Shown: positions 41,436-64,000 of the stretch, in pieces
Layout of the letters: every line of letters begins with the position of its first letter
Numbering within the stretch: the first letter of the stretch is position 1
Assembly (NCBI GenBank): GCA_031285845.1
Contig: JAITVK010000006.1
Location: 1,286-65,285, forward strand
DNA from: Propionibacteriaceae bacterium
Lineage (GTDB): Bacteria; Actinomycetota; Actinomycetes; Propionibacteriales; Propionibacteriaceae
Reading direction: 5' to 3'
DNA length: 64,000 bases
Made by a program: the position numbers and the translations under genes
The notes under the pieces: generated by a model
Database searches by the model: none
Seen by the model: the letters and a program-made list of their open reading frames with translations, nothing else
What the model was told of the DNA's origin: nothing

Positions 41436-41449
41436 ATCTGAATCCCTTC

Positions 41450-42916: not shown

Positions 42917-43130
42917 GACTCGCAATCTACCTCGTCACAGGGGGATTTGCAATTACAGGCCCTACTGGCCAAGACGGGTGATAGTGATCAGCTATTAGGA
43001 TGGTGGGTTGACATGACTGGGAGATCGGTTTCGGGTCACGCTCCGGGCTCGCTCGCCGCAGACCGCGCTGACCGATTCGACGTAAGCTCACGGAGATGTC
43101 AGCCTACGAGTCGTGTCGATTTGCCCTGGA

Positions 43131-47294: not shown

Positions 47295-47963
47295 GTGACC
47301 AGGCAGTACACTGACACGGTGACTCCGCGCTGGCCAGTAGTGATTTTCGACATCGACGGCACGTTGGTGAACTCGGTCGATCTGATCGTCGACTCGTACC
47401 AACACACTTTTCGTACCATCCTCGGACATGAGTGGGATGTCACCGAAATCAAAACCTGGATCGGCAAATCGCTGCGCGGGGTGTTCGAGGAAAAGTTTCC
47501 CGACCAGGCCGACGCGATGTTCGACGAATACTCGCGCTGGAACGACACCCACACCGCCGAGTCGATCACCGGGTACGACGGAATGCCGCAGTTGGTGGCC
47601 GACCTGGTCGCTAGTGGTGCTCGCGTCGGCGCGGCCACGTCGAAACGCCGTGAACCGGCGCGATGGGCGCTGGAACTGGGCGGCTTGGAGGCGCTGGTCC
47701 CGCTGACCATCGCCCACGAAGACGTGGACGCCCACAAACCCGATCCGGCTCCCCTGCTGGCGGCCGCCATAAAACTGGGAGCCACCCCTGATCACGTGGT
47801 CTACGTCGGTGACGCGGTCGTCGACATCCAGGCGGCCCACAACGCGGGAATGGACTCGGTCGGAGTCACTTGGGGGGCGGGAACCCTCCCGGCCATGATC
47901 GCGGCCCAGCCGAACGCATTGGTCGACACTGTCGCCGAACTGCGCGCCGTCCTGCTCCGCTGA
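47295..47963 (+). CDS. HAD-superfamily hydrolase (phosphoglycolate phosphatase/PpaX-like)
   Basis: HAD motif I FDIDGTL, motif II ATSK, motif IV GDAVVDI. Confidence 0.83.
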   Translation: MTRQYTDTVTPRWPVVIFDIDGTLVNSVDLIVDSYQHTFRTILGHEWDVTEIKTWIGKSLRGVFEEKFPDQADAMFDEYSRWNDTHTAESITGYDGMPQLVADLVASGARVGAATSKRREPARWALELGGLEALVPLTIAHEDVDAHKPDPAPLLAAAIKLGATPDHVVYVGDAVVDIQAAHNAGMDSVGVTWGAGTLPAMIAAQPNALVDTVAELRAVLLR

Positions 47964-48046: not shown

Positions 48047-50359
48047 TCAGCGCCGGCAGAAGGATCGCGGAGTGATCCGGGCCCAGAATCGGGCCAATCC
48101 GGTCCGAGAGGACAGCAACTGTGATTTCTCCGCTGCCACTTCGTCCCAGTACTGACTGACGATCGCCTGATCCGGCGGCGTCGGCTGGAACATCGCGCGA
48201 TTGGTCGAACTGGCCAGCTGTTCGAGACCCGCCAGACCCATCGCGGCGGCCTGTTCCGACCGGGTCCCGGCCCTCGGCACTCGCAAACCAACGTCACGCG
48301 CCCGATCCATGACATCGGACCAGCCCGCGGCGATCCGCGCAGCGTTCGACCCGGACCGTCGGCGGATGGCGGAACGCAGCGCTTTCACCCCGATCAACAC
48401 GCCGATCAGCGCGGCCACGCCGAACACAACGCCAGCGACGCCGATCAACGTCACCTGCCACCAGGTCAAACTGGTGGTCGTGGCCGACCGCGGCGGGGTG
48501 GTCTGAGCTTGGGTGTCCATCCGCGCGGTGGTGTCCGGGGGCAACTGCGGACCCTGTTGGGCGATGTTCGGGATCTCTTGCGGCGGAGTGACTTCGGCCG
48601 GTGGCGGCGGATTCGGCGCTTGGTCACGAGGCGGGATGAAAAACTGGGGCGGCAACGCGACCCATCCGTCGGTGGTGCCGAGCTCGACCCAGATCGTGAC
48701 ATCTTTGCCCATGATCTGGTCACCCTGACTGGGCATGGCCGCGCCGAACACCACGCGGGCCGGGAAACCGATCCGATTGGCGATCAGCGCGAACGCGGCG
48801 GCGTACTGCTCGTCAGATCCGACGTAAGCCGGCAGCGTGCTCATGAAGGCCCGCAGCCGATACTCCCCATCGCCGGGGGTGTATTTACTTTCGTTGGCCC
48901 GCGTCGTGCCATCGGTCCAACCGCCCTGTCTGAAGCTCGCCGCCAGCGCTTGGATCTGCTCCCACGGGGAGCCCGCGCCGCCGAGGATCGTCGTCATGTC
49001 TTCGCTGAGAAACTCAGTCACCGAATCCGACACCAGTGGAACCCCCGACGGAACCAGCGCACGACTGCCGTCCACCGGCGCGACGTCGACCGGCAGTGAC
49101 GAGACCTGGAGTTGGTCACCGGCGCGCAACTGATCCAACACCAGCGGCTGACCTTTCGTCAGGTCGTACGCCATCGACTCGGCGTGGCCGCGGGCGGTCG
49201 AGCCGTCGAAGCTGATCGCAGTGACTTCGCCCAGATTGGGGGCCCACACGTTTAACGGAGCCTGCTCGGCGTAGACCGGCTCGACCGTGATCCTCAGGTC
49301 GACCGGCGAACCGTGTTCAGTGGCAGTGTCACTGACCGGAATGACCGCTCCGACCCGACGGAAGCTCGTGTCCGCAGCCCCCCACACCAGGCCATCCCAC
49401 GAATCGAGGACGGTGAAGCGGATCAACGCCCCCGGACTCGCCCCCTCGACTGTGAGCAGCGGGTCGTCGTAGAAATAAGTCTCCTGCAACGCCGAGGACG
49501 AGAATTTGCGGAAACTCGGCATCGGCGACGGGTATTCGTTCAGATCCACCGGCGGTGTGATCAGGTCGCGTAGCAGCAGACGTGGCGGTTGAACCCCGGG
49601 CCAATGCGGACCGACCACACCGGCCACGGCGGCGGCCACCACCATCATGACCAGCGCCATCACCGACCACCGCCAGCCCGAGCCGACCCCCGCAGAGTGG
49701 CCCACCAGTTGACGACGCGACGCGCGGTACGACGTCCAGGCCAACCCCGCCCCGACCCAGACAATCGCTTGAACACTGACGTACGTCCATGGCTCGGCTC
49801 CAATCAGAATCGACAAGACGAACAAGGCGCCAGCCGGAATCAGCGGCAGCCCGGCGACACGATGGGAGCGAGCCAGACCATAACTGCCCGCAGTGAACAC
49901 CAGCGCCATCAGAAAGGGCAGCGCCAGAAAAGACCCGGATCCGTCGACCGGAGGAATCGTGGTCAGCAGTTGTTTCCAGCCGTGGATCGACACCGTCCAC
50001 AGGTCCTGAAAGGTCTGCCCCGACGGGATGATCCGCCAGATCAGACCCTGCCGAACAGCCACCGGACCGCCCAGCAGGACGTACGCCCCCAGCACAGCGG
50101 CCAAACCGATGGTCCAATGCCACCCAGCCACGCGCACGGCATGGGTCACCAGCGCTGCGATGAGGACGCCCAAACCGACGACGGCCATGAACAGCCACGA
50201 GTCGAATGTGGTGCACAACCCGATCAGCGCGGTCAGGCTGGTCACGGCCGCGAACCCCGCTTCGACCAGGGCCCGCGAGGTCGGCAGCAGCTTGACCCAA
50301 CGGGTCGTCGTCACGCCATGGGCGCGCGTCGGGGAGGTGTCCGGATTCACCACTCTCAT
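48047..50359 (-). CDS. Polytopic transglutaminase-like domain membrane protein (TgpA-like)
   Basis: The ATG at 50359 overlaps the DUF58 stop (ATGA). About 6 N-terminal helices, an extracytoplasmic region with a TGase-core-like segment (VGSDEQYAAAFALIANRIGFPARVVFG...IWVELG...GWVALPP), then a Pro-rich stretch and a C-terminal helix. Confidence 0.78.
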   Translation of the reverse strand: MRVVNPDTSPTRAHGVTTTRWVKLLPTSRALVEAGFAAVTSLTALIGLCTTFDSWLFMAVVGLGVLIAALVTHAVRVAGWHWTIGLAAVLGAYVLLGGPVAVRQGLIWRIIPSGQTFQDLWTVSIHGWKQLLTTIPPVDGSGSFLALPFLMALVFTAGSYGLARSHRVAGLPLIPAGALFVLSILIGAEPWTYVSVQAIVWVGAGLAWTSYRASRRQLVGHSAGVGSGWRWSVMALVMMVVAAAVAGVVGPHWPGVQPPRLLLRDLITPPVDLNEYPSPMPSFRKFSSSALQETYFYDDPLLTVEGASPGALIRFTVLDSWDGLVWGAADTSFRRVGAVIPVSDTATEHGSPVDLRITVEPVYAEQAPLNVWAPNLGEVTAISFDGSTARGHAESMAYDLTKGQPLVLDQLRAGDQLQVSSLPVDVAPVDGSRALVPSGVPLVSDSVTEFLSEDMTTILGGAGSPWEQIQALAASFRQGGWTDGTTRANESKYTPGDGEYRLRAFMSTLPAYVGSDEQYAAAFALIANRIGFPARVVFGAAMPSQGDQIMGKDVTIWVELGTTDGWVALPPQFFIPPRDQAPNPPPPAEVTPPQEIPNIAQQGPQLPPDTTARMDTQAQTTPPRSATTTSLTWWQVTLIGVAGVVFGVAALIGVLIGVKALRSAIRRRSGSNAARIAAGWSDVMDRARDVGLRVPRAGTRSEQAAAMGLAGLEQLASSTNRAMFQPTPPDQAIVSQYWDEVAAEKSQLLSSRTGLARFWARITPRSFCRR

Positions 50360-51621
50360 GTCAGACTCCCCTTCAACGCCTGGGGCAGATCTCTCAGCGA
50401 TCCGATCGTCAGTTGTGTCAGACCGTCGGCGGCAGTCAAACTGATCGGCGAGCCGAGCCCGACGCACAAGACCACCAGTGGCACCCACGGGTGGACCAGG
50501 CCGCGCCATTGACGCAATTGTGCCGAAGTCGTCTGATCGCCGGTGACGACGAACACCAGCGATGCGTCGACGATCTCAGTCCTGACCCGTTGCAGGGACT
50601 GAGCCGGGTCGACATCGACCAGCTGAGCCCGGGCGTACGCGTCCAAGACGTGGTTGGAGCGCATCCCCGACACCACTTCATGACCACAGACCACAGTCAG
50701 ATCCATCGCGTCCATCACCGTTCGGACAGCCACAGACGCCGCGCACGACAACCCCAGTTCGACATCGTCTTCGATCTGATACTGGTTCTCACGCAGATCC
50801 GACACGATCACCACGTGGCTGCGCCGGGTGTCGTAGTAGCGCCGGACCAGGAACCGGTCCTGACCTTGAGCCTGACTCAGTCGAGCCGAGGACCGCCAAT
50901 GGATGTGACGACGGTCGTCACCGGGCGCGTAATCACGCAAGGCATGAAAAGCCAGATCAGCGTCGGAGGCGTCCAGAGTTGGGTTGCCTTCCAGGTCGCG
51001 CAGCAGACCCGAGCCGAGTTCGTCGACCGCGGCGATGGCAGGATGGATGAACAGTTCCGCCATGGCAGTGCGTTGGACCTCGCGCCGGATCAAGTTCCAT
51101 GGGTCGCTGCGGTAGGTCGTGACCGGGCCGACTTGGACGACGCCGCGGCGAGCGGTCGGAATGGTCACCCAGTCGGTGTAGGACTGCCCCGCCTCCAGCG
51201 CAGGAGTCGTGAAGTCGGCCGCCGACTGGCCGACCGGCATCCGCAGTTTGACCATGGCGATCGGGCGGTTGGAGATGTTGGTCAGCTCGAAGCTGCCCAA
51301 CGCCGAGGCTCCGGCGAAGACCCTGACCGGAGCCAGCCCGAGTTCGACGCGAACATCGGTTCGCCCGAAAGTCGACGCGACGGCGAACACCAGCGCCGCC
51401 AGCGCGAACGCGGCCACCACCCCGGCTTCGACCCAGCCGAAGGCCGCGCCGGCACCCCAAGCGAGCCCCGCCACGACAAGCATGGCCCATCCGGCCCCAG
51501 TGAGAGCCTTCGTTGTCTCGCGCAGCCAACGCCACACCGGGCGCACCGCCTGAGCCATCGCCTCCACCCCGTCGAGCAGCCAAGTTTTGGCCCGTTGGCC
51601 CAACTCGCCCCAGCGGCTCAT
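50356..51621 (-). CDS. DUF58-domain protein (MoxR partner)
   Basis: Two N-terminal helices and the DUF58 signature LRDYAPGDDRRHIHWRSSARL. The ATG overlaps the MoxR stop (ATGA). Confidence 0.85.
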   Translation of the reverse strand: MSRWGELGQRAKTWLLDGVEAMAQAVRPVWRWLRETTKALTGAGWAMLVVAGLAWGAGAAFGWVEAGVVAAFALAALVFAVASTFGRTDVRVELGLAPVRVFAGASALGSFELTNISNRPIAMVKLRMPVGQSAADFTTPALEAGQSYTDWVTIPTARRGVVQVGPVTTYRSDPWNLIRREVQRTAMAELFIHPAIAAVDELGSGLLRDLEGNPTLDASDADLAFHALRDYAPGDDRRHIHWRSSARLSQAQGQDRFLVRRYYDTRRSHVVIVSDLRENQYQIEDDVELGLSCAASVAVRTVMDAMDLTVVCGHEVVSGMRSNHVLDAYARAQLVDVDPAQSLQRVRTEIVDASLVFVVTGDQTTSAQLRQWRGLVHPWVPLVVLCVGLGSPISLTAADGLTQLTIGSLRDLPQALKGSLT

Positions 51622-52592
51622 GATTCGGCGGCCCTCACACTGGCCGGGGTCACGCTGGCCAGAAGTGCGTCGATCACGTCATCGATCTGGACGGAAGCGA
51701 ACAGCGCCTCCGAAGACAACAAGAGTCGATGACTGAGGACCGGGGTCGCCAGGCGCTTGATGTCGTCGGGCGTGACGAACTCGCGACCATGGGCCACCGC
51801 CCACGTCTTGGCGACCCGGACGTAACCCAGCGCCCCGCGCATCGACAATCCGAGCCGGACTTGCGGATGGGAGCGAGACGCGGTCGCCAGCCGAGAGACA
51901 TAGTCGAGAATCGACGGGTCGACGTACGCCTGGTTGGCGAACTCGGTCATCTGGGTCACCGCCGTGGCGGAGACCATCGCCCCGACTGCGGCAGCCCGAT
52001 CCCGGTTCTCCGCCTCACGCAGCAACTCCACCGTCGCGTCATGATCGGGGTAGCCCACACTGACCTTCATCAAGAAGCGGTCCAACTGGGCCTCCGGCAA
52101 CCGATAGGTCCCGGCCTGCTCGATCGGATTCTGTGTCGCGATCACCATGAACGGATGACCGACGTCGTGGCGCACCCCGTCGACGGTGACCGTGTTCTCC
52201 TCCATGACCTCCAGCAGCGCCGACTGGGTCTTCGGCGACGCCCGGTTGACCTCGTCCGCCAACACGATGGTGGCGAAGATCGGGCCGGGATGGAACTCGA
52301 ACGACTGGGTCCGCTGATCATAGACCGAGACCCCGGTCAGATCCGACGGCAGCAGGTCGGGAGTGAACTGGATGCGCGAATGGGTGCCTTGGACGGTGTT
52401 GGCGACCGCTTTGGCCAGAACGGTCTTGCCCGTTCCCGGGTTGTCTTCCAACAGCAGGTGGCCACCGCTGAGCAGGGTGACCAACGCCAGTTCGATGACC
52501 GAGTTCTTTCCTCGGATCGCCAGCGCGACGTTGTCGACCATGCGTTGGAAGTTCTCTTCGAACCAGTGGGCTTGGTCTGCGGTGATGGGCAT
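51618..52592 (-). CDS. MoxR-family AAA+ ATPase
   Basis: Walker A NPGTGKT, Walker B ILADEVNRASPKTQSALLE, and the typical MoxR length (324 aa). GAAGGAG is the SD. Confidence 0.9.
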   Translation of the reverse strand: MPITADQAHWFEENFQRMVDNVALAIRGKNSVIELALVTLLSGGHLLLEDNPGTGKTVLAKAVANTVQGTHSRIQFTPDLLPSDLTGVSVYDQRTQSFEFHPGPIFATIVLADEVNRASPKTQSALLEVMEENTVTVDGVRHDVGHPFMVIATQNPIEQAGTYRLPEAQLDRFLMKVSVGYPDHDATVELLREAENRDRAAAVGAMVSATAVTQMTEFANQAYVDPSILDYVSRLATASRSHPQVRLGLSMRGALGYVRVAKTWAVAHGREFVTPDDIKRLATPVLSHRLLLSSEALFASVQIDDVIDALLASVTPASVRAAES

Positions 52593-52635
52593 GGGTTGTC
52601 TCCTTCAGTGATGGTTGTGGTACGAAAATGTGGGG

Positions 52636-55600
52636 TTAGAGGTCGGTGCCGACGCCTTTCGCGGTGGCGGTCGTCCGACCGTCGTCACTAGCGCAGGACA
52701 CGGTCCAGTCGCCGTCGAAGAAATACCCGTTCTGAGCGCCGGTTTGCGACATGAGTCCCGACCCCATTCCGCCCAGCCGCTGCCAGTCACCGCCTTGAAG
52801 CGTGATGTTGTACAACTGATCGCTTCCCTTGTCGAAGTCCCATGTGGCCGACCAGTCAGGGGTGGCCCCTGAGTCGTCAGGGCGAGTTCCGACAGTCGAG
52901 GCGGAGCAACTCCAGGGGCCCCGGATCCGACTCAGCTCGAACACCACCGCGTGGCATCCTTGGCAAGTTTTGTCGTTGACCTCCGCGGTGCTTCTGACCC
53001 CGAGGATCGGCTCCGGATCGGGCATCGACGTCACTGTGATCTGTTCCGTGACGTCGGGCAGATCTTCCATGAACGTCTCGCCGACTGCCGTTGCTGTGAA
53101 GGTGACCGCGACCGACGGCCCCCCGGCGTCGACACACAGGTCGTACGTCTGATCCTCCGTGCCCTGGACCCACTCATCGTTGACACTGTTCGTCATCTTG
53201 AACGTGACGTCGATCGACTCGAAGTCGGGCGAGGTGAGGGTGGCCGCCACGCACACCGTCTTGTCGGTCGCTGTGCCTCGGCTGGTGTTGAAGGTGATCG
53301 TCGGTGGCGGGGTGGCGGCAGATTTGACGCTGATCTCCTCGTAAATGCGATTCGACACGGGACCGGACAACGGGATGACGTACAGAGTGAACTTCGCCGT
53401 GACGTTGGCTTGGCCCGAATCGACACACACGGTCTCCTCGATGTGTCCGACGGCCGCAATGTCCTCCGTGGTCGGAGGAGAGCTACCGATCGCATCCCAC
53501 TCAACAAGCACATGCCACCGCACGGACACGCCGTTCGTGTCAGCGGTGAAACTCGCGCACTGGGTCTTGTCCACACTCAGCGTTCCCGCTGCGGGCGAGG
53601 TGGACGTGAAGCCGCCACTCATCGGTCCGTACGTCGTCACTGACACCTCCACCGGGGTGTTCGTGTGAGTGCCGTTGTCAGCCCACACTTTCACGGTCGT
53701 GCTCTCGCCGTTGGTCAATCCGGTGATCCGGTTCGGACCGGTTCCATTGGTCTGATGTGGCTCGCCAGAGCCCACCTGGTAGTAGACCTTGAGGTCGCCG
53801 CCGTTCGAGCGGGGGAACGGGTCGACGATCAGCTGCGCCACGCCATTGTCTCCGGTGGCCTCGATGTTCACCGCATTCTGAGCGAAATCGTCCGGAACTC
53901 CGACCGCCGAGCGCAAACGAAGCGTCGCACTGGGGGAGCTCGGACGGTTCGGATCGGTGTCGATGTCAGTGACGTAGGCCGTGAACTTGACCTCGGTGTC
54001 CCACGCCCCGACATCGACACAATACGGATCCCACCCCTGGGAACCGGTGGGCCCAGTCGGAGTGACACCGCTGCCGGATCCTCCATTGCCTTGCGCGGTG
54101 ACGATCTGGTAGTCCACCTCAATTTTGCTGGCCCGCCCATTGCCGTTGCCCGACGCGGTGACACAAACCTCTTGGCCTTGGCCACCGGCTTGGGTCAGTG
54201 ACGGGGCCTGCAGCGGGCCGTACGGCCCCACACCACCGGCCACACCTGACGGACCGGGGTCGGTGACACTGAACTGGATCGGCGCGTTACAGGCGTCAGC
54301 ACTGTTGCAGGCGCTCAGTGTCAAGTCGACCGCCTCACCATTGGTCAGCCCGTTGATCAGCGCGCTGGACTGCCCTGGCCTCAAGCGGGCCACTTCGTCA
54401 CCACCGAACAGTCGGACGATCACCTCACCGGATGAGTCACGGAAATCGGGGAATCGGTTCATCGACACTCGAATCTGACCGTCGACTCCAGTGGCGGCCC
54501 CGACGAAGAACTCGGCTCCTCCCAAAGAGCTCCATGGCGCTGGGGCTCCGACGGCTTTCCAACTCGAGGACAGTTCTTCACTGGTGTGAGCCGCGCCACC
54601 GCTGGCATTCGTCGCCGTCACCGCGTAGGTGTAGGTCGCTCCGTCGTACGCCACACCGTTGTCCCCGAGCGTGGTCTCGGTCGTCGGCGGGAAGGTTTTC
54701 GTGCCGTCGGGTCCGCTGCGGGTCACGTGGTAGGTCACCGGGCCGGGTCCTTGCGGATCGGCCACCGGCCAAGTGACGGCCACTTGAGCAGTGTCGCCCA
54801 TGTCTTGGGCCCGAGCGGTGATGGCCGAGTCTTGCGGCCACAACGGAACACAGGAGGTCTGGAAGTTCACGGTCGCCGCCGAGTTCGACTGCCCATGACC
54901 GTTCACCGCCACGATCGACACCTTCCCGCTGACAGCCACGGTCGAGGCGACAGGGACCGTGTACGTTCGCTGATCCGCCCCGACCGACACCGTCGTGCCC
55001 ACGCCAGGCTGGGTCGCTGAAAAGCTCAAGGCGTACGACTCGACCGTGCCACTGCCACTAGTTCCCGACCAGGTCACCGTGACCGAGCCACAACTGACGG
55101 CGGTCAGCTTCGCGCCGAGGACCAGACCCGGTGGCGCGTCCGGAATCACCGGGGCGCTCGGCGGGCTCCACTCGGATTCACCGACCTTGTTGACGGCCTT
55201 GACCTGGAACTGGTAGGCCGTGCCATTGGTCAGGCCCGGGATCTCACAGGTGGTGTTGACCCCGCAGGAGTACGAACCGCCGTCCCAGCGCACTTCGTAA
55301 GAAGTGATCGGAGCGCCGTTGTCGGCCCCAGGGACGAAACTGATCACCGCGGACTGACTGCGCAGTTGCATATCGGCCCGCGGCGCGCTCGGCGGATCGG
55401 GCGCCCCGACCACAGTGACCGAGAAGTGACCGGTCACCTGTCGATCGGTTCGGGAGTCGTCGGAAACATCGGACGCGACGACGTCGAAGACCATCTCACC
55501 GTGACTGGTCGGCCCCGGGGTGATCGTGATCATGTCATCGTCGAAGCTGATCCCGGCCAAAGTGGACTGGGTCTGAGTGACACGGACGATGTTCTGCGTG

Positions 55601-58600
55601 GCATCGGCCATCGGCGAAACCACGGTCACCGGAATCCTCACCACACTGCCCTGCACCACATCGGTGACACTGGCCACTGCCAAGGTTGGCGCAGGCGCGG
55701 CGATCACCGCCACTGTCACTTCACCGGTCACATCGGGGTAGCCGTCGACGTGGATGGTCAAAACCGACGACTGTCCAGGGATCGAACCGGGTCCGGCTTT
55801 GATCTGAACCATGCTGGACGGCAGCGCTGCCCCATCGGCTCCACTGATCGTGACCTCGTCACCGCCGGTGGCCCACTCAGCGCTGAACCTCAACTCGGCG
55901 ATCGCGTCCTCAGTCGGCATCCAGGCGTGACACAACCGCGCGATGTCTAAAGTCCGAGCCATACCTCCTTGGACGACTTCCTGCGGGGCGCTCGGGCACC
56001 ACAGCACCGGCGTGGCCTTGCCGACCTGAACTGGAATCGTGACCACCCCGACGAGCGCGTCTGGATCGGTCGCGTCTGGCGAGTCGCGCACCTCCACGGT
56101 CAGAGCTGCTGGGCCCGAATAGTCGTTGCGCGCCTGCAACGTGATCTTGCGATCCGATTCCACCATCAATCCCAGGTTGACCTCGGGGGCGGTCCACGCC
56201 TGGGAAGCCATCGTCAACACCACCGGTTGGTCGCGCGGGGAGGTGATGTAATCGTTCAGATCGACGGTGAGCGACGAGTTGGCGTCCATCGTGATCAGTC
56301 CGCCCGAGACCAACTCTGGACGCCCAGACTTCAATGACGGAACGAAGACGACCGCCATCGCCTGAGCGCCGTCGGCGTCAGCCACGACGAATGGGATCAC
56401 CTGACCGCGATCGGTCACCGGAACCGACACGGTCGATCCGTCGAAGGTTCCAGGAGCCCCGACCGACACGATCGTGATAGCCCCAGACGGACCGTCAACG
56501 TCCCACGCGTCGTCCAGCACCTGAGCCGAGGCGACCCCGTCGACCACACTGGTGGCCACATGGTCGTACACATTCGGCGGATTGACGTAGCCTGGTTGGG
56601 AGCGGATCGACACTTGAGCGGAGACACCGGCGACCCCGTCGGCCTCCAGATGATACTTCGTGGTGGCGGCCGCCTCACCCAGCCCCGGCGCGGTCGTCTG
56701 CAACAGATGATGCTCCTGATCGAGACTGACCTTGGCCGACTGGTCGTCCGACGCGATGTCGACCCGACCTGATCCGAGTGGGATGATGTCGTTGGTCATC
56801 GGATACACGTTCACACCAGCCCCAGGCTGAGCGGTGACGACATCGTCGACCGCCAGCGATGCGGTGGCTGTCCCCACGGGCGCGACGCCGACACGGACCG
56901 TTCCGATGCCGACCGCACCGAAACGATCCTGGACATAGTATTGGAACGTGTCAGAGCCCGAATCACCCATGTCGGGATACGACTCGTAGGTCAACACGTC
57001 AGCGCCGACCGACGTGACTCGCCCGAATTTCGGCGGCGTACGGAGCCCGACCACGGTCACCGAATCACCATCTGGGTCCTGCCCATAGACGCCGATCGGA
57101 ACATCGACCGTGTCGCCGACGATGGTGCGCACCTCGATCGCGGCGGGTGTCGGCGCGGCGTTGTCCCCGGCAGCGAGCGTCGCGTCTTGACCTGTCGAGT
57201 CGGTCTGGGCAGTCGCAGGCAGAGGCACCACGTCGACCCAGACGTGTCCGGTCGTTGGGGATCCCGAAGGCGACTGGGCCTGATACTCGATGCGCAACCG
57301 ACGTTGCTGGTCACCGCCCAGGGGAGCTTGATACCGAATGAAACTGCCGTCGACGAAGGCCTGGCCGACGTCGAGCTTCGCCTGAGCCAACGGCGCGGTC
57401 GGGTCCTCGACCGTCAATTGTCCGGCCAACAGCCCGGTGACATTGTCGTTCAACACCAACGCTTCACCCGATTGCGACGAGTCGTTGCGCAGCACCGGAA
57501 TCGTGGTGACGTCGCCCACCCTGACGCGAGCGTAGTCATCGACCACCGACACCCGATCGACCGACGGGGCAACCGTCTGAGTCACGTCGACCACGCCGGT
57601 GGCTTGTTGCCCCAAACCATTGGACACCGCATACGTCACCTGGGCTTGTGCGGCCAGCACCGCCGACGACAGCATCCGTACCCTCAGCCAACGTCCTTCG
57701 ACCACGACCACCTGGATCCGATCCGGATTGACCGGCGTGGCCGAGGTGACCGTCAACACCGAGCCCGCCGAGTCATGGTCATTGCTCAACACGTCGACGG
57801 TCGCGGCCACCGTCCCGTGGACCAGCGCAGTGTCAGGCATCGCGATCAGTGACGTCTGGTCGCCGACATCGACCCTGATCTTGCCGGTGGCGAACCCCGA
57901 ACCAAAGCTGACCGTGTAATCCAAGAAGTACGATCCGACGCGTGCGGCGGTCACCGTCACTGCCCCGGTCACGATGTCGGTCGACACCTGCAAACCGACC
58001 CGCTCGCTGATTGGGGCCGCCAACGCCAAGACCGCCTGACGATCCAAAGGATCGCACCCGGGGATGTCGTTGGCCACAGGGAAGAACACCACGGGGCGAT
58101 CCACCACCGCTCGAACCAGATCGGACATCGCCTGCGGGGCGACGCCGAGCGTGGCGTTGGCCGCCAACACTTTGACGTAGACCACGCCGGGACTGGTCTG
58201 ACCCGAGCCATCGCCGACCTGGTAGTTGATGGTCACCGTCGTGTCAATGTCGACCACCGGCGCGTGATAGACGATCACGCCTTCGCTGGAGACCACGACC
58301 GGAGCCGAATCGACTTCGGCTGCGACGACGGTCACAGGATCGGAGTCGGCGTCACGCCAAGCCCACCCCGCCGCGATCGACACTGAACCGCCGCTGGCCA
58401 CCGTGTGGTCGGGGGCGTCCAGTGAGACACCCAGTTCACCGACCAGGTTGGGAGCGGTGTTCTGACCGGGTTCACGCATCGACAACGTCACGTCGGCGCT
58501 GGAGACCGACTCGGAGCCTTCGTCGTCGACCGACCGATTCGTGACCGAGTACGACACGGTCATGTCACTGGCCTGACCAGCGGGAACCTCCGCGACCAGG

Positions 58601-60066
58601 GATTGCCCGTCTGGCGAGATTCGAATCCGCGCAGCGTCCGTGCCGGTGACCGTGGTGATCGCCATGATCCCGCCGCCGGGATTCTCGTCATTGTCCAACA
58701 CGTGCAGGATCGCCGTACGACCAGGTCGAGCCCACAGATGATCCGGCCTGGCATTCGGGGTGGCTTCCTGCGACCGCTGTGGGTCGCCGGTGGTGCCTTC
58801 GTCCTGCGGATCGACCGTGTCCCACTGATCCATCGACTGCTCGTCGATGATGTCGAACACTGTCCCGGTGGCCATGTCGTTCAGAACGACTGAGCCTTTG
58901 TTGACCCGGAACGCTGGCGAGATCAGAGCCGTTCCATCGGTGGGGAACGACAGCTGCGACACCCGGGAGTCGGTGATCTTCACCACTCGCCCTGGGGTTC
59001 CCGCCCAGGCGGCGTAGGTCGTCGACGCCACCACCACTGGGCGAGCCGGAGCGCCCCACACGATGGAGTCAGCTGAGTCGGTCGAGTCCGTCGTACCGTC
59101 CCCAGGCGTGCCGTCCCCGGCCGTGCCCGACTGGGAGGCTCCGGCTTGGGGCATGCCGGATTCGGATGTGCCAGACGATGATGCGCCATCGACCTTGTCG
59201 AGGCGTGTCGGATCCCCACCGCGCAGCGGAATCGACCACAGGCCACTAGTCGCGGCCACGATCACCCGATCCGCGTTCGCCTCAGGCTGCTCCAACGCCA
59301 AAGACCGGTCAGCGCCCAACTCGTGACGAGCACCAGAGGGCAGAAACACCGCTCCTGAGATCGGATCGGCGCAGACCATCTCGCCACCGACGATCGTCAC
59401 CTCCACAGCGGCCAATTGCGCGCCCAGCGATCCGGGGGTGACGGTCCCATCCCGATCGATGCGAACCGTGTCACCTGAGGCCGAGGCCGCCACAACCACC
59501 CCGGCGGCGTCGACCGCGATCGCGACGCCGCGATCCAACCCTGACAGGACGTTCAGCGTCGCCACCGCCGGTTGATCCACCGCCAACCCGGTCAGGTCGG
59601 GAATCTCATCGGGAGCGTACGACACCGCACGAATCTCGCCCTTGTCCGAACTGATCGTGGCGAGGATCCCCCCGCCCATCGCCACCGCGCTCAACGGACC
59701 GACGGCGACCGGGCCATCGCCGGTCATCTCCACCGAACGAGGATCGATCGCGCTCAGGCGCGACTGGGAACGGGTCCATCCCACCACGGACTCCCCATCC
59801 TGGAAGACGTCGAAGGTCGCCTCACCGGCGTCGCGCAGCGGGTCGGACAGGGCAGCGTCCAACGCGCCGGCCGAACGGTTCAGGCGCCCGAACAGGCCGC
59901 GATCCCCATTGGTGACCCACACCCCGGAATCGTTCAGTTCCATCACCCGGTCGTCCATCCCGCGGCTGAAGATGGCCGCCGAGACGAGGACAGCGACCAC
60001 GACAGTCACCACGACGTACGGCGCGACAGCGCGCAACCGGGAAGAACGCGGGGTTTTGTTGGCCAT
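52636..60066 (-). CDS. Giant (2,476-aa) N-terminally membrane-anchored protein with cadherin-like/Ig-like and fibronectin type III domains
   Basis: The ATG at 60066 (AGGAG 8 nt upstream) lies 1 nt after the upstream stop. Single TM helix APYVVVTVVVAVLVSAAIF. Repeated xLxNDxDxxG cadherin-like motifs (VLDNDENPGG, VLSNDHDSAG, VLRNDSSQSG, YGQDPDGD). A clear FN3 domain (PITSYEVRW...TNGTAYQFQVKAVNKVGES) and further FN3-like modules. Confidence 0.85.
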   Translation of the reverse strand: MANKTPRSSRLRAVAPYVVVTVVVAVLVSAAIFSRGMDDRVMELNDSGVWVTNGDRGLFGRLNRSAGALDAALSDPLRDAGEATFDVFQDGESVVGWTRSQSRLSAIDPRSVEMTGDGPVAVGPLSAVAMGGGILATISSDKGEIRAVSYAPDEIPDLTGLAVDQPAVATLNVLSGLDRGVAIAVDAAGVVVAASASGDTVRIDRDGTVTPGSLGAQLAAVEVTIVGGEMVCADPISGAVFLPSGARHELGADRSLALEQPEANADRVIVAATSGLWSIPLRGGDPTRLDKVDGASSSGTSESGMPQAGASQSGTAGDGTPGDGTTDSTDSADSIVWGAPARPVVVASTTYAAWAGTPGRVVKITDSRVSQLSFPTDGTALISPAFRVNKGSVVLNDMATGTVFDIIDEQSMDQWDTVDPQDEGTTGDPQRSQEATPNARPDHLWARPGRTAILHVLDNDENPGGGIMAITTVTGTDAARIRISPDGQSLVAEVPAGQASDMTVSYSVTNRSVDDEGSESVSSADVTLSMREPGQNTAPNLVGELGVSLDAPDHTVASGGSVSIAAGWAWRDADSDPVTVVAAEVDSAPVVVSSEGVIVYHAPVVDIDTTVTINYQVGDGSGQTSPGVVYVKVLAANATLGVAPQAMSDLVRAVVDRPVVFFPVANDIPGCDPLDRQAVLALAAPISERVGLQVSTDIVTGAVTVTAARVGSYFLDYTVSFGSGFATGKIRVDVGDQTSLIAMPDTALVHGTVAATVDVLSNDHDSAGSVLTVTSATPVNPDRIQVVVVEGRWLRVRMLSSAVLAAQAQVTYAVSNGLGQQATGVVDVTQTVAPSVDRVSVVDDYARVRVGDVTTIPVLRNDSSQSGEALVLNDNVTGLLAGQLTVEDPTAPLAQAKLDVGQAFVDGSFIRYQAPLGGDQQRRLRIEYQAQSPSGSPTTGHVWVDVVPLPATAQTDSTGQDATLAAGDNAAPTPAAIEVRTIVGDTVDVPIGVYGQDPDGDSVTVVGLRTPPKFGRVTSVGADVLTYESYPDMGDSGSDTFQYYVQDRFGAVGIGTVRVGVAPVGTATASLAVDDVVTAQPGAGVNVYPMTNDIIPLGSGRVDIASDDQSAKVSLDQEHHLLQTTAPGLGEAAATTKYHLEADGVAGVSAQVSIRSQPGYVNPPNVYDHVATSVVDGVASAQVLDDAWDVDGPSGAITIVSVGAPGTFDGSTVSVPVTDRGQVIPFVVADADGAQAMAVVFVPSLKSGRPELVSGGLITMDANSSLTVDLNDYITSPRDQPVVLTMASQAWTAPEVNLGLMVESDRKITLQARNDYSGPAALTVEVRDSPDATDPDALVGVVTIPVQVGKATPVLWCPSAPQEVVQGGMARTLDIARLCHAWMPTEDAIAELRFSAEWATGGDEVTISGADGAALPSSMVQIKAGPGSIPGQSSVLTIHVDGYPDVTGEVTVAVIAAPAPTLAVASVTDVVQGSVVRIPVTVVSPMADATQNIVRVTQTQSTLAGISFDDDMITITPGPTSHGEMVFDVVASDVSDDSRTDRQVTGHFSVTVVGAPDPPSAPRADMQLRSQSAVISFVPGADNGAPITSYEVRWDGGSYSCGVNTTCEIPGLTNGTAYQFQVKAVNKVGESEWSPPSAPVIPDAPPGLVLGAKLTAVSCGSVTVTWSGTSGSGTVESYALSFSATQPGVGTTVSVGADQRTYTVPVASTVAVSGKVSIVAVNGHGQSNSAATVNFQTSCVPLWPQDSAITARAQDMGDTAQVAVTWPVADPQGPGPVTYHVTRSGPDGTKTFPPTTETTLGDNGVAYDGATYTYAVTATNASGGAAHTSEELSSSWKAVGAPAPWSSLGGAEFFVGAATGVDGQIRVSMNRFPDFRDSSGEVIVRLFGGDEVARLRPGQSSALINGLTNGEAVDLTLSACNSADACNAPIQFSVTDPGPSGVAGGVGPYGPLQAPSLTQAGGQGQEVCVTASGNGNGRASKIEVDYQIVTAQGNGGSGSGVTPTGPTGSQGWDPYCVDVGAWDTEVKFTAYVTDIDTDPNRPSSPSATLRLRSAVGVPDDFAQNAVNIEATGDNGVAQLIVDPFPRSNGGDLKVYYQVGSGEPHQTNGTGPNRITGLTNGESTTVKVWADNGTHTNTPVEVSVTTYGPMSGGFTSTSPAAGTLSVDKTQCASFTADTNGVSVRWHVLVEWDAIGSSPPTTEDIAAVGHIEETVCVDSGQANVTAKFTLYVIPLSGPVSNRIYEEISVKSAATPPPTITFNTSRGTATDKTVCVAATLTSPDFESIDVTFKMTNSVNDEWVQGTEDQTYDLCVDAGGPSVAVTFTATAVGETFMEDLPDVTEQITVTSMPDPEPILGVRSTAEVNDKTCQGCHAVVFELSRIRGPWSCSASTVGTRPDDSGATPDWSATWDFDKGSDQLYNITLQGGDWQRLGGMGSGLMSQTGAQNGYFFDGDWTVSCASDDGRTTATAKGVGTDL

Positions 60067-60067
60067 G

Positions 60068-60787
60068 TCACTGCTCCTGATCAACTGGGACGATGGGGGA
60101 GGTCGGCAGCAAGGACAGATCGTCGACGGTGACCATCTGGATGCCCAGACAGTATTCGACCAGTCGAGCCTTGCGCGACGTCGCGAGTCTCCCCGGGCCA
60201 CCATGGAGGCCCCGTACCCCCATGTCAGCGAGCTTTCCGCACAGATAGTCCAGTTTCCGGTTCAGTTTGGTGACCGACCAGCCCAACCGAGCGGCGGCCT
60301 GCGCCGACGTCGGAATGGTTCCCGCGCCCCGATTCTGATGCCGCAACACGTCTTCAGCCAAGGCGGCGACCAGGATGCGTTGCTCGACCGACAGGGTCAA
60401 CGTGCCGATCGTCAGTTCGCCCGACGCAGCCTGCTCCACGTCGACCGTCTCCCAAGGCGTGTCCTCAATGTGGATTTCGAACTCGTAGGTCGTCTCAGCC
60501 GCGGTGAACCAGACACAGACGAAAGGGAACACCAAAGGCAGCTGCCCCATCGGCGACAGCCAAGCCTGCATCTCGCCCTGATTCGATGACACCGTCGCCG
60601 ACAAGGCGGAGCCGACATTGCGCAGCCACCACAGACCGGAGTCCCACTCGACACGCAGAAACACCCGATGAAGGAACGGGTTGGCTTCGTCGAGGATCAA
60701 GTCTGCCTCCCGACCGATCGTGAACCCTCGGGTCGGATCGACCGGATAGATCTCCGAACAAAAGTCCACAGTCAGCGACGGAATCAT
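60068..60787 (-). CDS. Divergent FHA-like domain protein with C-terminal helix-turn-helix
   Basis: The ATG at 60787 overlaps the kinase stop (ATGA). The N-terminal half resembles an FHA domain (GFTIGREADLILD...WWLRNVGSALSATV). The C-terminal half has an HTH-like segment (TSAQAAARLGWSVTKLNRKLDYL). Confidence 0.55.
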   Translation of the reverse strand: MIPSLTVDFCSEIYPVDPTRGFTIGREADLILDEANPFLHRVFLRVEWDSGLWWLRNVGSALSATVSSNQGEMQAWLSPMGQLPLVFPFVCVWFTAAETTYEFEIHIEDTPWETVDVEQAASGELTIGTLTLSVEQRILVAALAEDVLRHQNRGAGTIPTSAQAAARLGWSVTKLNRKLDYLCGKLADMGVRGLHGGPGRLATSRKARLVEYCLGIQMVTVDDLSLLPTSPIVPVDQEQ

Positions 60788-62436
60788 GGGGCACATCCTT
60801 GAGTCGGGTCGATTTGGGCGTACGCGCCGGTGGCTCGGTTGACGGACACGCTGACACAGGTCTTCTCGCCCGTGACCGCCGTGGTGTACACGGGATCCTC
60901 CAAGCGCACGCGCGCGCCATCAGGAGCCACGATCCAGTAGAAATCGCTCGGATCGGCCTGGTCGTACTCCCACTGGAACGTGACCATCCCATCGGCGATC
61001 GTCGACGTGATCACTGGGGTGCCCGGATAGGTGTCGATGTCACCCACCGTGTCGTCCGGGGGGATGCTGGCGGTGGGAAGTCCCCCCGGCTCACCCTCAG
61101 GATCGGGCGAGAACACGATCCACGCTGCCACAGCCAACGCCGCGACCACGACCAGCACGACCGTGGTGATCAGCCGCCGACGCGTGGTCAGGACCGGGCG
61201 CGCGCCATCCTGATCGGCGACGGCCTCCTCGGCCGCAGGGTCGTCGTCTGACACCCCGACAGCGCTGCTCGGGCCGCCCCGTCGACGGGTGGCCAGGTCG
61301 TCGACCGCTGGTTCGCCCCGCCGACGAGTGGCCAGCTCGGTCTCCGAACCGTGTGAGCCGCCTGACTGGTTGACCGGGTCGCTCAGAGCCGGCGAGTCGG
61401 ACACAGCTTTGGCACGCGTCGCATCTGGGGAGTCCGACCGCGACGTCTGGCCGGACAAACCTGCCCCGGATTGTTGAGCCACGCCCGGCGGCGTCGCGAC
61501 TAGTGAGACCGACGCCGACCTCACCCGTGTCAGCTCGTCGTTGGTCGCCGGTGGTTGATCGAGCGACTCATCCGGTTGGTGGGCGACTTTGAACGGCGTG
61601 GCCCGCAGCCGCAGCTCCTCTTCGATCGCACCCAGCGCTCGGGCGAACGCGACCGCCGTCGCCGGACGCGACCGGGGGTCTTTACTCATCGCTTGACGAA
61701 GCAGCCGCTCCAACGACGAGGGGACGTCGCCGCGCCCAGTGGACGGCACGGGCAGGTCGCGCACCCGTACCATCATCGCGGTGGGACGATTGTCCCCGCC
61801 AGGGGCCTCGAACGGCGAATGACCGACCAAGACGTGCCACAGCGTGGCCGCCAAGGAGTAGATGTCGCAGCGCCGATCCAACGGGCCGGTGGCGAACATG
61901 GCTTCGGGCGCGGCCCACGGAACCGACAAGGACGCGTCAGTGTTGTCGACCTCATGCAGGTGAGAGGCGATCCCAAAATCCGTCAGCGCCGGGTCGCCGA
62001 ACTTGTCGATCAAAACGTTGGCAGGTTTGATGTCGCGATGCAGCAGCCCGACCTGGTGAGCGGCTTCGACCGCTGACGCCAGTTGGATGCCGACGCGCAA
62101 GACATCGGCCACCGGCATCGGTCCCCTGCGCGCCGCCTGCGCCAACGTCTCCTGCGAATAATAGGCCATTTCGATGTACGGCCGACCGTCTTGAGTGAAG
62201 CCGGAGGAATACACCCGGACGATGTTCGGGTGTTCCAGCGCGGCCATCGTGTTCGCCTCGTCGGCGAACCGCTGGATCATGCGAGGACTGAGCGCGTTGT
62301 CATGCATCACTTTGACAGCCACATCACGGCGCGGATTGGCCGACTCGTACAAGAAAACGTCCGCGAAACCGCCCGTTCCGAGCAGCCGCTTGCTGGTCAG
62401 ACCGGGAATCACCGGGGCTTGGGCGGGCGCGCGCAT
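60784..62436 (-). CDS. Hanks-type Ser/Thr protein kinase with one TM helix and a small extracytoplasmic domain
   Basis: GTGGFADV, VAVKV, HRDIKPANVLI, DFGIA and PWAAPE motifs are all present. A TM helix (LITTVVLVVVAALAVAAWIVF) is followed by a ~110-aa C-terminal beta-rich domain. Confidence 0.9.
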   Translation of the reverse strand: MRAPAQAPVIPGLTSKRLLGTGGFADVFLYESANPRRDVAVKVMHDNALSPRMIQRFADEANTMAALEHPNIVRVYSSGFTQDGRPYIEMAYYSQETLAQAARRGPMPVADVLRVGIQLASAVEAAHQVGLLHRDIKPANVLIDKFGDPALTDFGIASHLHEVDNTDASLSVPWAAPEAMFATGPLDRRCDIYSLAATLWHVLVGHSPFEAPGGDNRPTAMMVRVRDLPVPSTGRGDVPSSLERLLRQAMSKDPRSRPATAVAFARALGAIEEELRLRATPFKVAHQPDESLDQPPATNDELTRVRSASVSLVATPPGVAQQSGAGLSGQTSRSDSPDATRAKAVSDSPALSDPVNQSGGSHGSETELATRRRGEPAVDDLATRRRGGPSSAVGVSDDDPAAEEAVADQDGARPVLTTRRRLITTVVLVVVAALAVAAWIVFSPDPEGEPGGLPTASIPPDDTVGDIDTYPGTPVITSTIADGMVTFQWEYDQADPSDFYWIVAPDGARVRLEDPVYTTAVTGEKTCVSVSVNRATGAYAQIDPTQGCAP

Positions 62437-62437
62437 C

Positions 62438-64000
62438 TCAGGCCACCTCGAACACGAAATCGAAGGCGCTGGCCAGGACGACCCGGGTGCCCGGTTCCAG
62501 CGTCATCGGCTCGTTGGTGCGCAGGGCCACCGGCGGACGATGAGGCAGAATGACCTGAGTCCCATTGGTCGAACTCAGGTCACGGACCGTGACGAACCAG
62601 TCCTCCAACCGGATCTCGCAATGCTGCGACGAGATGTCACGATTCGGATCGTCGATACGAATCAGATGCGGTTGTGGCCCGACGACACCAGGCACAGCGT
62701 GCGGATTGCGACCGAACACCACCCCCCGGTCGAGCAGGATCGTCCCCCCGACCCACAGCCGCAGAATCCCCAACGCGGGTCGCGGCACTTCCAACACCGG
62801 CTGATTCTGATCCAGCACCGCGCCGCAGACCCGACAGTGCTGGGCGTACGGCGGGCTGTGATGGCCCTGAGGGCAGACGAACGCGACCACCATCACCTCA
62901 CCCGATCCACCGATCGGCGTCAGGGCCGTCCGGCGCACAGTCGCCTCCTCTGCCGGGGCATGGGCCGGGGCGATGATGAGCTCAGTCGAAGACGGGAGTG
63001 CCGCCACGGGCGGCGAAGGCACGGGGGAGGTTGGCGCGACACGGGGCGCGGAGGGGGCTGGAGCGAATTCGGGGGGTACGACGGCCGGGGGCGGTGCGAC
63101 GGTCGGAACCGGCGATGATGGTGACCTCGCCGATTCGTGGTCGGCCCTGCGCCGGACCGCCGAATACTCGGGGACCTCGCCCGTCCCGCGCCAGTCGAAA
63201 GACTCGATGAAAGCCGGTGGCTCCGAACTGCGGCGCGCCCCCGACGCGCTGCGCGGCTCGGGGTTGGTCGCCGACCAATCCTCGGCCGACGTCGTCTGGG
63301 TCTCGCCTGACGGAATCTCGATTCCCGCCTGGGCCAGATCGATGGTGGAGATCGCCACCTGTGTGCGGCCCGGATCCTCGGCGTCGCCGTGATCGGCATC
63401 GTCCCCCGCTTCCATCCCCGGGTCGTTCGCTGGGGCGACGCCGCCGAGGCCGTCAGACTGGGCGGTTCGCGCCGAATCCACTGTCGACGGATTCTGAGCC
63501 GCCGTGTTCGGCCCCACGATGCCCAGCAGATGTTCGAAGCCCATCATGGTGTCTTCGATCAGGCCAGTCGCTGATCCGGCCACACTCGAGTCAATCGCCG
63601 AAGCGAGTGCGCTCGAATCGGATTGCGCCTCGACCGAGTCATCGCTCGACCCTGGCCAGACGATGCGGTCAGCCAGCACGGACCCGCGGGCCAACTCCAG
63701 CCACCCACCGGCCGCCCCCGACCCAGCGTCGGTCGTGCCATGACCGACAAAAGCAACTTCACTGTGCGCCGGCGCCTCTCGGCGGGTCAGCTCCGCTGAG
63801 AATTGCGACGCGACACCGTCGACTGTGACGGCGAACCGCCCGTACCCCAGGATTGTCACCGTCGTCGATCCGACGACCATCGCAGCGAAGGATGGCGTGA
63901 CCGACGGCTCAGGCCCACCGCCCAGCGACGGCGTCGATCCCGATGACGAACCAGACGAACCCTCCGCGACCGCCTGGCTGATCGCGGCGATGGGGTCGTC
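62438..64000 (-). CDS. FHA-domain protein with a zinc-ribbon-like motif; the reading frame is open to the window edge
   Basis: C-terminal FHA (FGRNP...IDDPNRDISSQHCEIRLED..VRDLSSTNGTQV) is preceded by CPQGHH...CRVCG and a long Pro/Ala/Ser-rich linker. The first ATG is at 63880, but the same frame has no stop up to 64000. Confidence 0.8.
   Translation of the reverse strand, partial: DDPIAAISQAVAEGSSGSSSGSTPSLGGGPEPSVTPSFAAMVVGSTTVTILGYGRFAVTVDGVASQFSAELTRREAPAHSEVAFVGHGTTDAGSGAAGGWLELARGSVLADRIVWPGSSDDSVEAQSDSSALASAIDSSVAGSATGLIEDTMMGFEHLLGIVGPNTAAQNPSTVDSARTAQSDGLGGVAPANDPGMEAGDDADHGDAEDPGRTQVAISTIDLAQAGIEIPSGETQTTSAEDWSATNPEPRSASGARRSSEPPAFIESFDWRGTGEVPEYSAVRRRADHESARSPSSPVPTVAPPPAVVPPEFAPAPSAPRVAPTSPVPSPPVAALPSSTELIIAPAHAPAEEATVRRTALTPIGGSGEVMVVAFVCPQGHHSPPYAQHCRVCGAVLDQNQPVLEVPRPALGILRLWVGGTILLDRGVVFGRNPHAVPGVVGPQPHLIRIDDPNRDISSQHCEIRLEDWFVTVRDLSSTNGTQVILPHRPPVALRTNEPMTLEPGTRVVLASAFDFVFEVA

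Follow-up and report, generated by a model that had tools for sequence, protein, structure and literature searches.

A PFNA-type operon in a Propionibacteriaceae genome: distribution across Actinomycetota and predicted properties of its kinase, MoxR and surface-protein components

The Bifidobacterium PFNA operon and its counterpart in Propionibacteriaceae

The PFNA operon of Bifidobacterium (pkb2-fn3-aaa_atp-duf58-tgm, together with prpC, a hypothetical gene and fha) has been characterized by the Nezametdinova/Danilenko group (PMC8430577, PMC6803598, PMC10688814), whose papers were the only literature we found on a combination of MoxR, DUF58, transglutaminase and FHA proteins. In B. longum GT15 all eight PFNA genes are co-transcribed, and the kinase Pkb2 phosphorylates the MoxR ATPase in vitro (PMC8430577). 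These reports describe the operon and its FN3 protein as occurring only in Bifidobacterium (PMC8430577, PMC6803598, PMC10688814), interpret WS-xS motifs in the FN3 protein as cytokine-receptor motifs possibly acquired from eukaryotes, and offer a hypothetical scheme of phospho-regulated, AAA+-assisted handling of a surface protein. Here we analyze a cluster of seven genes at positions 48047 to 64000 of a 64,000-nucleotide stretch of DNA (the window; contig JAITVK010000006.1, assembly GCA_031285845.1) from a Propionibacteriaceae metagenome-assembled genome (MAG). An initial annotation of the window, made from the letters alone, had arrived at the same mechanism as the PFNA scheme and had regarded the composite as lacking any functional description; PFNA is a published system with the same gene set, for which co-transcription has been reported, and the claim of novelty is not supported. 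The MAG is annotated as Propionibacteriaceae, and its locus tag LBV06_01320 is matched at 100%.

Portions of this gene set are known from other settings. In Pseudomonas aeruginosa the genes PA2875-PA2874-PA2873, encoding MoxR, DUF58 and TgpA proteins, are co-transcribed, and TgpA, which has a periplasmic transglutaminase domain, is essential (PMC3507681; 6G49); its Cys-His-Asp triad is required and its transglutaminase activity is measurable (PMC3507681). In the window, too, the gene for an MRP-type MoxR is followed by that for a DUF58 protein and then by one for a polytopic protein whose transglutaminase-core domain is extracytoplasmic, whereas the P. aeruginosa operon has no kinase, PP2C or FHA genes and no giant surface protein. 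An MRP-type MoxR operon of Rhizobium affects cell morphology and envelope integrity, as cited in PMC3893208. The MoxR-vWA ternary conflict systems, with VMAP, iSTAND and FtsH components and effector domains (Kaur et al. 2020, PMC7159879), are frequent in Actinobacteria and likewise bring together a MoxR, a vWA-like protein and a large third component; they differ from the window locus, in which MoxR is of the MRP/AAA_3 kind, its partners are DUF58 and TgpA-like proteins, effector and VMAP-type domains are lacking, and the genomic context is conserved and housekeeping-like.

The locus comprises seven consecutive open reading frames (ORFs), all on the minus strand and free of internal stops by the ORF listing and by direct inspection. 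In order of transcription, with lengths in amino acids (aa), they are:

62438 to 64000, minus strand: FHA1, a protein with a Zn-ribbon and a canonical FHA domain, 5'-cut by the window edge (earlier called as 62438 to 63880)
60784 to 62436, minus strand: Hanks-type Ser/Thr kinase, 550 aa, the Pkb2 counterpart, recognized by Pkinase and the Hanks motifs
60068 to 60787, minus strand: P3, a cytoplasmic protein of 239 aa with no Pfam family, assigned from an AlphaFold2 model and Foldseek
52636 to 60066, minus strand: giant N-terminally anchored surface protein, 2,476 aa, the PFNA FN3 counterpart, with fn3, Big_9 and Cadherin_5 matches
51618 to 52592, minus strand: MoxR (MRP-type) AAA+ ATPase, 324 aa, with AAA_3 and AAA_lid_2
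50356 to 51621, minus strand: DUF58 protein, 421 aa, assigned from the DUF58 matches of its orthologues and its transmembrane (TM) segments
48047 to 50359, minus strand: polytopic TgpA-like protein, 770 aa, with Transglut_core, encoded by the last gene of the operon

Single-nucleotide (nt) gaps separate FHA1 from the kinase gene and P3 from the giant gene; 4-nt ATGA overlaps join the kinase gene to P3, MoxR to DUF58 and DUF58 to the TgpA-like gene; and 43 nt lie between the giant gene and MoxR, the sole real intergenic gap of the operon, which holds a strong ribosome-binding site, GAAGGAGA. A Shine-Dalgarno-like purine run occurs 5-12 nt 5' of every start codon, as seen in the upstream 25-mers. 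The seven genes have the layout of a real, tightly packed operon. Every junction reproduces exactly that given in the initial annotation, and Pfam and NCBIfam bear out the domain content it had proposed for FHA1, the kinase, the giant protein, MoxR and the TgpA-like protein. The operon ends at 48047, since the next genes, for a HAD hydrolase (47295-47963) and then LemA (46441-47181), are convergent. Promoter and terminator consensus scans of the 47-64 kb region gave nothing above shuffled expectation, and no tRNA genes or Rfam families reached threshold anywhere in the 64-kb window.

At its other end the operon runs on beyond the window, as had been anticipated. The FHA1 frame is open up to base 64000, and its in-frame upstream peptide (...VTPSFAA, then MVVGSTTVTILGYGRF...) aligns with an interior stretch of orthologues (...APAFGVMSVGDDNVRVVAYGH...); FHA1 is thus a gene cut by the window edge. 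The start that had been assigned at 63880 is an internal ATG, whose Met lines up with a Met inside the proteins of the closest relatives; these proteins extend ~70 residues further at the N-terminus.

Two products were compared directly with their counterparts from B. adolescentis, taken from the supplementary alignments of PMC6803598. By BLASTP, residues 1-1698 of the giant protein align with residues 24-1641 of the FN3 protein (WP_041777402.1; 26% identity, E 2.4e-92), and residues 95-763 of the TgpA-like protein with residues 132-801 of TGM (WP_011743632.1; 28% identity, E 3e-51). The giant and FN3 proteins share, collinearly, a TM segment, an N-terminal domain, a cadherin-like array and an FN3 pair at ~1500-1700; the TgpA-like protein and TGM are likewise collinear, and the catalytic Cys is lost in both. 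This collinearity indicates that the window holds a PFNA-type operon. The kinase, FN3, MoxR, DUF58 and TGM families stand in the same order on one strand in both operons, the kinases share an architecture in which one TM helix links the catalytic domain to a short, variable ectodomain, and an FHA gene belongs to both clusters, as would a PP2C gene, which here is known from relatives and would lie beyond base 64000 of the window. There are differences as well: the window host is a Propionibacteriaceae MAG and not a Bifidobacterium; the FHA gene and, in relatives, the PP2C gene lie upstream of the kinase, whereas in PFNA they lie downstream of tgm; the highly conserved P3 gene is inserted between the kinase and giant (FN3) genes; and the window giant is ~450 residues longer at its C-terminus. 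Homology and gene order make the window operon an orthologue, in Propionibacteriaceae, of the PFNA-type operon; the latter is best explained as a vertically inherited actinobacterial operon. As the operon itself has already been described as PFNA, what the present comparison adds is its wider distribution, the predicted pseudo-enzyme status of the TgpA-like protein, and the identification, from structure models, of a propeller in the surface protein and of P3.

Dispersal of the operon among Actinomycetota

To inventory the operon we scanned one genome per GTDB species for P3 and annotated the surrounding loci by phmmer searches with the window proteins, using the best 80 of at least 594. P3 is carried by at least 594 species genomes, and in most of the 80 sampled (Propionibacteriales, Micrococcales and Jatrophihabitans) the order of the operon is syntenic. 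In Janibacter, Propioniciclava and a further Propionibacteriaceae MAG, the genes around P3 are arranged as PP2C-FHA-kinase-P3-giant (or propeller only)-MoxR-DUF58-TgpA-like, with unrelated housekeeping genes upstream of PP2C. Where the sequence continued for 9.8 kb or more beyond P3 (63 loci), the giant protein and MoxR were found downstream in 51, DUF58 in 50 and the TgpA-like protein in 47; upstream, PP2C and FHA genes were present in 59-60 of 61 loci, PP2C standing directly 5' of the FHA gene in 59. Most incomplete loci represent permutations, or tandem giant paralogues that fill the flank; in Glutamicibacter, Xylanimonas and Brachybacterium the MoxR-DUF58-TgpA-like triad is placed upstream of PP2C. 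Chance cannot reasonably account for the arrangement, given that dozens of genera repeat the same order. The linkage of the FHA/kinase and giant genes to MoxR-DUF58-TgpA-like genes, which the initial annotation had proposed to check, is strongly conserved and reaches far outside the circle of close relatives.

The operon is carried by Propionibacteriaceae, Nocardioides, Intrasporangiaceae, Microbacteriaceae, Micrococcaceae, Dermabacteraceae, Promicromonosporaceae and Jatrophihabitans, among others, and genera from soil, glaciers, activated sludge and plants are represented (for instance Micropruina, Cryobacterium, Terrabacter, Knoellia and Agromyces). The occurrence of the operon in at least 594 species genomes and the collinearity of the FN3 proteins contradict the published statement that the operon and its FN3 protein are confined to Bifidobacterium.

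These distributions also bear on the model developed for PFNA, according to which the FN3 protein is a receptor for TNF-alpha that acts through WSxWS-like motifs while the kinase senses host immune signals. That model draws on binding of TNF-alpha by a B. longum FN3 fragment and on induction of the operon by TNF-alpha (PMC10688814), and the FN3 region of the window giant bears a motif of the same WS-PS type (WSPPS, at residue 1633). Yet its premise of restriction to Bifidobacterium does not hold, orthologous operons reside in the soil, glacier, activated-sludge and plant-associated genera just listed, and WSxxS occurs in the FN3 region of many such orthologues, which argues for a structural feature of FN3 and not an adaptation to a host; the reading of WS-xS as a cytokine-receptor motif conflicts with these free-living occurrences and with the WSPPS of the window. 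As a general function the model is contradicted, and we give it hardly any credence for the operon at large. An old, widely inherited module of soil, sludge, glacier and gut bacteria cannot have host-cytokine sensing as its core job.

Two loci in the survey show further peculiarities. In Janibacter alkaliphilus (locus L001, 16995-20705) a gene for a 1,466-aa protein with an FHA domain and two or more FtsK/SpoIIIE ATPase domains (EssC-like) starts 4 nt before the stop codon of the TgpA-like gene, so that the operon seemingly extends into a translocase-like ATPase. A complete actinobacterial operon, with a P3 of 51% identity, is present on a contig labelled as an Acidobacteriota MAG (L059, JAGWSF010000163.1); the label probably reflects mis-binning, or else horizontal transfer.

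Predicted structure and variation of the operon proteins

The kinase gives a strong Pkinase match (E 1.2e-39; domain at 61654-62394) with a complete set of Hanks motifs (Gly-rich loop GTGGFADV, VAVK, HRDIKPAN, DFG, APE), followed by one TM helix (residues 423-441; 61114-61170) and an ectodomain of ~109 aa (60787-61113). The idea that this ectodomain and the giant protein's Cys-pair modules are related was tested by BLASTP and rejected (best E 0.08). FHA1 matches the Pfam FHA family (PF00498, E 4.6e-8; 62477-62719), with the GR, SxxH and NG motifs all present, and has a Zn-ribbon of the form CxxxH...CxxC at 62825-62875 whose residues C336, H340, C349 and C352 are invariant in four orthologues.

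P3 matches no Pfam or NCBIfam family, and a profile search of PDB sequences returned chance matches only. In its AlphaFold2 model (pLDDT 84), residues 1-110 (pLDDT >90) fold as a beta-sandwich and six helices follow toward the C-terminus; the two parts correspond to a divergent FHA fold at 60458-60787 and a six-helix domain at 60110-60388. The top Foldseek match is the FHA-1 domain of Mycobacterium tuberculosis Rv1747 (6ccd; E 1.2e-5, TMt 0.75), with further matches to the FHA domains of ArnA, GarA, OdhI and EmbR (TMt 0.6-0.75) and to FhaA. As modelled, P3 adopts an FHA fold over its N-terminal half, where the invariant residues include G25-R26, H40 and N57-x-G59. The FHA domains of Rv1747 FHA-1, GarA/OdhI, FhaA and EmbR superpose on this domain, and the P3 gene adjoins a Hanks kinase and PP2C, as do those of many actinobacterial FHA adaptors; unlike the known adaptors, P3 has no significant Pfam FHA match, keeping only GR, the His and N-x-G, and unlike the FHA regulators compared it has a C-terminal domain that matches no known family. 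P3 had been annotated as FHA-like with a helix-turn-helix (HTH): the fold match upholds the first part, while for the second there are weak hints only, with sub-threshold HTH_8, HTH_64 and CENP-B_N matches in one or two of 22 orthologues (best E 0.06). With the whole model as query, only FHA and SMAD MH2 folds appeared among the matches listed. Were the helical domain to bind DNA, P3 would resemble EmbR in pairing it with an FHA domain, although the order (FHA, then helical) is reversed relative to EmbR. P3 is second only to MoxR in conservation: it is 48-68% identical to its orthologues in the comparison of the operon proteins, 48-78% identical across orders overall, and 50-78% identical in matches from Propionibacteriaceae, Janibacter and Jatrophihabitans. 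In a library of 1.8 billion proteins the relatives of P3 fall into 866 clusters at 50% identity; of the distant ones, ten clusters were looked up and none of these bears a name.

The giant protein contrasts with this pattern: together with the TgpA-like protein it is the least conserved of the operon, at 26-42% identity to its orthologues. Pfam matches are to fn3 (1.3e-17), Big_9 (6e-17) and Cadherin_5 (2e-8); there is a single N-terminal TM helix (residues 14-32; 59971-60027) and no LPXTG sorting signal. Regions can be delimited as a beta-propeller (58822-59931), a cadherin-like/Big_9 array (55447-58749), the FN3 region with its WSPPS motif (55153-55398) and Cys-pair Ig-like C-terminal modules (52639-55152). 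An AlphaFold2 model of residues 1-440 (pTM 0.74) places the TM helix ahead of the propeller, which is matched in Foldseek by NirF, BamB and kelch propellers (E ~1e-9), and a stand-alone Janibacter protein of 444 residues, encoded in the same operon slot, is a homologue of the first ~415 residues (E 6e-22). A homologue search with a 1,000-residue query yielded 13 matches and a 9-row alignment. On the basis of the model, the conserved core of the giant protein is a membrane-anchored extracellular beta-propeller, with the cadherin-like/Big_9 array, FN3 region and Cys-pair modules as its variable stalk.

This protein also varies in size and copy number. In Janibacter and Knoellia (L001, 10728-12062; L047, L054, L057, L062 and L066) it is cut down to the TM helix and propeller (~444 aa), or the giant or propeller gene has moved behind the TgpA-like gene. 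Two or three tandem giant paralogues follow P3 in a Propionibacteriaceae MAG and in two Cryobacterium species (L018, L081 and L083), which points to a surface component that has duplicated and diversified.

MoxR matches AAA_3 (9e-62, 207 bits) and AAA_lid_2 (2.6e-21), its Walker A (PGTGKT) and Walker B (DEVNR) motifs are intact, and it is 58-79% identical to its orthologues. The Walker A of this clade (region 52430-52450 of the window) reads LEDxPGTGKT, with Asp for the first Gly of GxxxxGK[ST], in 57 of 58 motif-matched orthologues from 60 examined; the remaining one reads IEDFPGTGKT. The DUF58 protein falls below the Pfam cutoff (18.5 versus 23.4 bits), but all 14 orthologues match DUF58 (best 3.5e-15); it consists of an N-terminal TM hairpin (51376-51486) and a cytoplasmic DUF58 domain. 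The orthologue alignment contains no conserved DxSxS MIDAS motif, and a DUF58 profile search of PDB sequences gave chance matches only.

With MoxR, a vWA-like DUF58 protein and a beta-propeller encoded together, the locus could be taken for a ternary-type NTP-dependent conflict or defence system in which the propeller protein serves as third component and sensor; MoxR has a weak bpMoxR match (4.5e-11), and the surface protein diverges fast (26-42% identity). However, AAA_3 is by far the better match for MoxR (207 bits, against 43 for bpMoxR), the systems of Kaur et al. lack DUF58 and TgpA and carry effector domains, none of which was found in the window proteins by Pfam, and the operon is single-copy and syntenic among housekeeping genes. 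The propeller, moreover, is predicted to be extracellular, whereas MoxR and DUF58 would be cytoplasmic. A defence role is accordingly very improbable in our estimation.

The TgpA-like protein matches Transglut_core (1.4e-9) through an ectodomain at 48653-48985, its orthologues also match TgpA_N, and identities to these orthologues are 27-38%. A profile of 13 orthologous ectodomains matches the periplasmic domain of P. aeruginosa TgpA (6g49; E 3.7e-11); the orthologue profile was needed for this, as the single-sequence query of PDB sequences gave no match. Where TgpA has its Cys/His/Asp triad the window protein has Asp/Thr/Pro, with His replaced by Thr at chain position 287 and Asp by Pro at chain position 303, and with the catalytic Cys, two residues before the aligned HYA of TgpA, replaced by Asp in GSDEQYA. 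The triad numbering, which we take to be C404/H448/D464 (chain 287 being H448 and 303 D464), fits the alignment offsets. The catalytic Cys is absent from all 25 sequences compared (the window protein, B. adolescentis TGM and 23 orthologues); in the orthologues and TGM its place is taken by D, E, Q or S, and the triad His and Asp are kept only sporadically. The transglutaminase domain is, as far as residue identities can tell, a pseudo-enzyme, in contrast to TgpA, in which the triad is kept and active. One might instead suppose, as the annotation implies and as is assumed for PFNA TGM, that the domain is an active enzyme, either a transglutaminase or a cysteine protease, whose substrate for cross-linking or cleavage at the surface is the giant protein; the Transglut_core match and the homology to active TgpA would allow this. 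Transglutaminase chemistry is unlikely in this operon because the catalytic triad is absent, with Asp/Thr/Pro at its positions in the window protein and no Cys in any of the 23 orthologues or in TGM, and an enzymatic role is in our judgement next to untenable.

Possible function of the module

We somewhat favour the view that the PFNA-type locus encodes a phospho-regulated membrane module of MoxR, DUF58 and pseudo-TgpA that acts on the surface protein. Its direct basis is homology, conserved gene order, predicted folds, intact kinase and ATPase motifs and the lost triad, and from these we infer function. A cytoplasmic MoxR hexamer would be tethered to the membrane by the DUF58 protein, through its TM hairpin and a vWA-like domain without MIDAS, and the polytopic TgpA-like protein would provide a second tether. 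The latter's catalytically dead ectodomain may serve as a binding scaffold for the beta-propeller, which would be the foot of the giant cadherin-like/FN3 fibre next to the membrane, and ATP-driven remodelling by MoxR could then control how the giant protein is inserted or folded or which conformation it takes. The TM kinase and PP2C would set the state of the module by phosphorylation; FHA1 and P3 would read the phospho-marks, and P3 might relay the signal to DNA via its helical domain. We propose this scheme because the MoxR Walker motifs are intact, the DUF58 protein has a TM hairpin, the TgpA homologue of P. aeruginosa is co-transcribed with MoxR and DUF58 and the catalytic Cys is replaced in 25 of 25 sequences; because Janibacter and Knoellia keep only the propeller base of the giant protein; and because Pkb2 phosphorylates the MoxR ATPase in vitro in B. 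longum and the Rhizobium MoxR operon affects envelope integrity (PMC3893208). Selection for linkage of the components is suggested by the at least 594 genomes with P3 and the recurrent gene set on both sides of it.

Several points weigh against this scheme. The link of MoxR, DUF58 and the TgpA-like protein to the giant protein is hypothetical for every organism, and the contact between the pseudo-transglutaminase ectodomain and the propeller is pure inference. Operon status in this organism is predicted from gene layout, and the topology of the TgpA-like protein derives from a crude hydropathy scan and homology to TgpA. P3 has no Ser or Thr at the first position of the FHA SxxH motif, which leaves phosphothreonine binding uncertain, and its HTH is weakly hinted by the sub-threshold HTH_8 match (E 0.06) at residues 162-180. 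Finally, in four of the 63 loci (Microlunatus, one Phycicoccus, Nocardioides phosphati and Timonella) P3 occurs without the MoxR triad within 10 kb.

In an alternative reading one transcript carries two separate units, a general envelope-homeostasis triad and an independent adhesin or S-layer-like giant protein, while kinase, PP2C and FHA proteins regulate something else, for instance cell-wall growth. Proteobacterial MoxR-DUF58-TgpA triads, including that of P. aeruginosa with its essential TgpA, do without giant protein or kinase, and a Rhizobium MoxR operon affects morphology and the envelope (PMC3893208); in Glutamicibacter, Xylanimonas and Brachybacterium, where the triad precedes PP2C-FHA-kinase-P3, no giant was seen in the 20-kb locus; and Pkb2 has many other substrates in vitro (PMC8430577). 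Two observations speak against separate units. Across orders the giant (or propeller) stays in the cluster despite changes of position, as in Knoellia, where it lies behind the TgpA-like gene; and the catalytic triad, kept in proteobacterial TgpA, is lost in the actinobacterial clade, which argues for a changed, clade-specific role. Two independent units are a serious but unlikely explanation, and we retain the membrane module acting on the surface protein as our working interpretation.

In its boldest form, which we consider doubtful, that interpretation would describe a pan-actinobacterial trans-envelope machine in which AAA+ work and Ser/Thr phospho-signals pass via a dead transglutaminase scaffold to the propeller foot of a cadherin/FN3 fibre of more than 2,000 residues, giving integrin-style inside-out control of adhesion or cell-cell contact, with P3 as a new FHA-plus-HTH phospho-dependent transcription factor closing the loop. 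The parts conserved across carriers are the predicted membrane-anchored beta-propeller, the MoxR ATPase and the previously unnoticed FHA-fold protein P3. The comparison directs experiments to a function in the cell envelope or surface fibre, and offers cultivable, genetically tractable hosts outside Bifidobacterium for functional work.

Two other features of the window lie outside the operon. A second giant surface protein of 2,068 aa (21099-27305, minus strand), with Big_6, Big_1, Big_13 and SdrD_B Ig-like domains, is adhesin-like in appearance and unrelated to the operon. A cytochrome bd cluster (36263-42925, minus strand) comprises cydA (41450-42925), cydB (40326-41435) and an ORF for 1,360 aa (36263-40345) in which two ABC halves and a long low-complexity linker are seen by eye, and which resembles a fused CydD-CydC.

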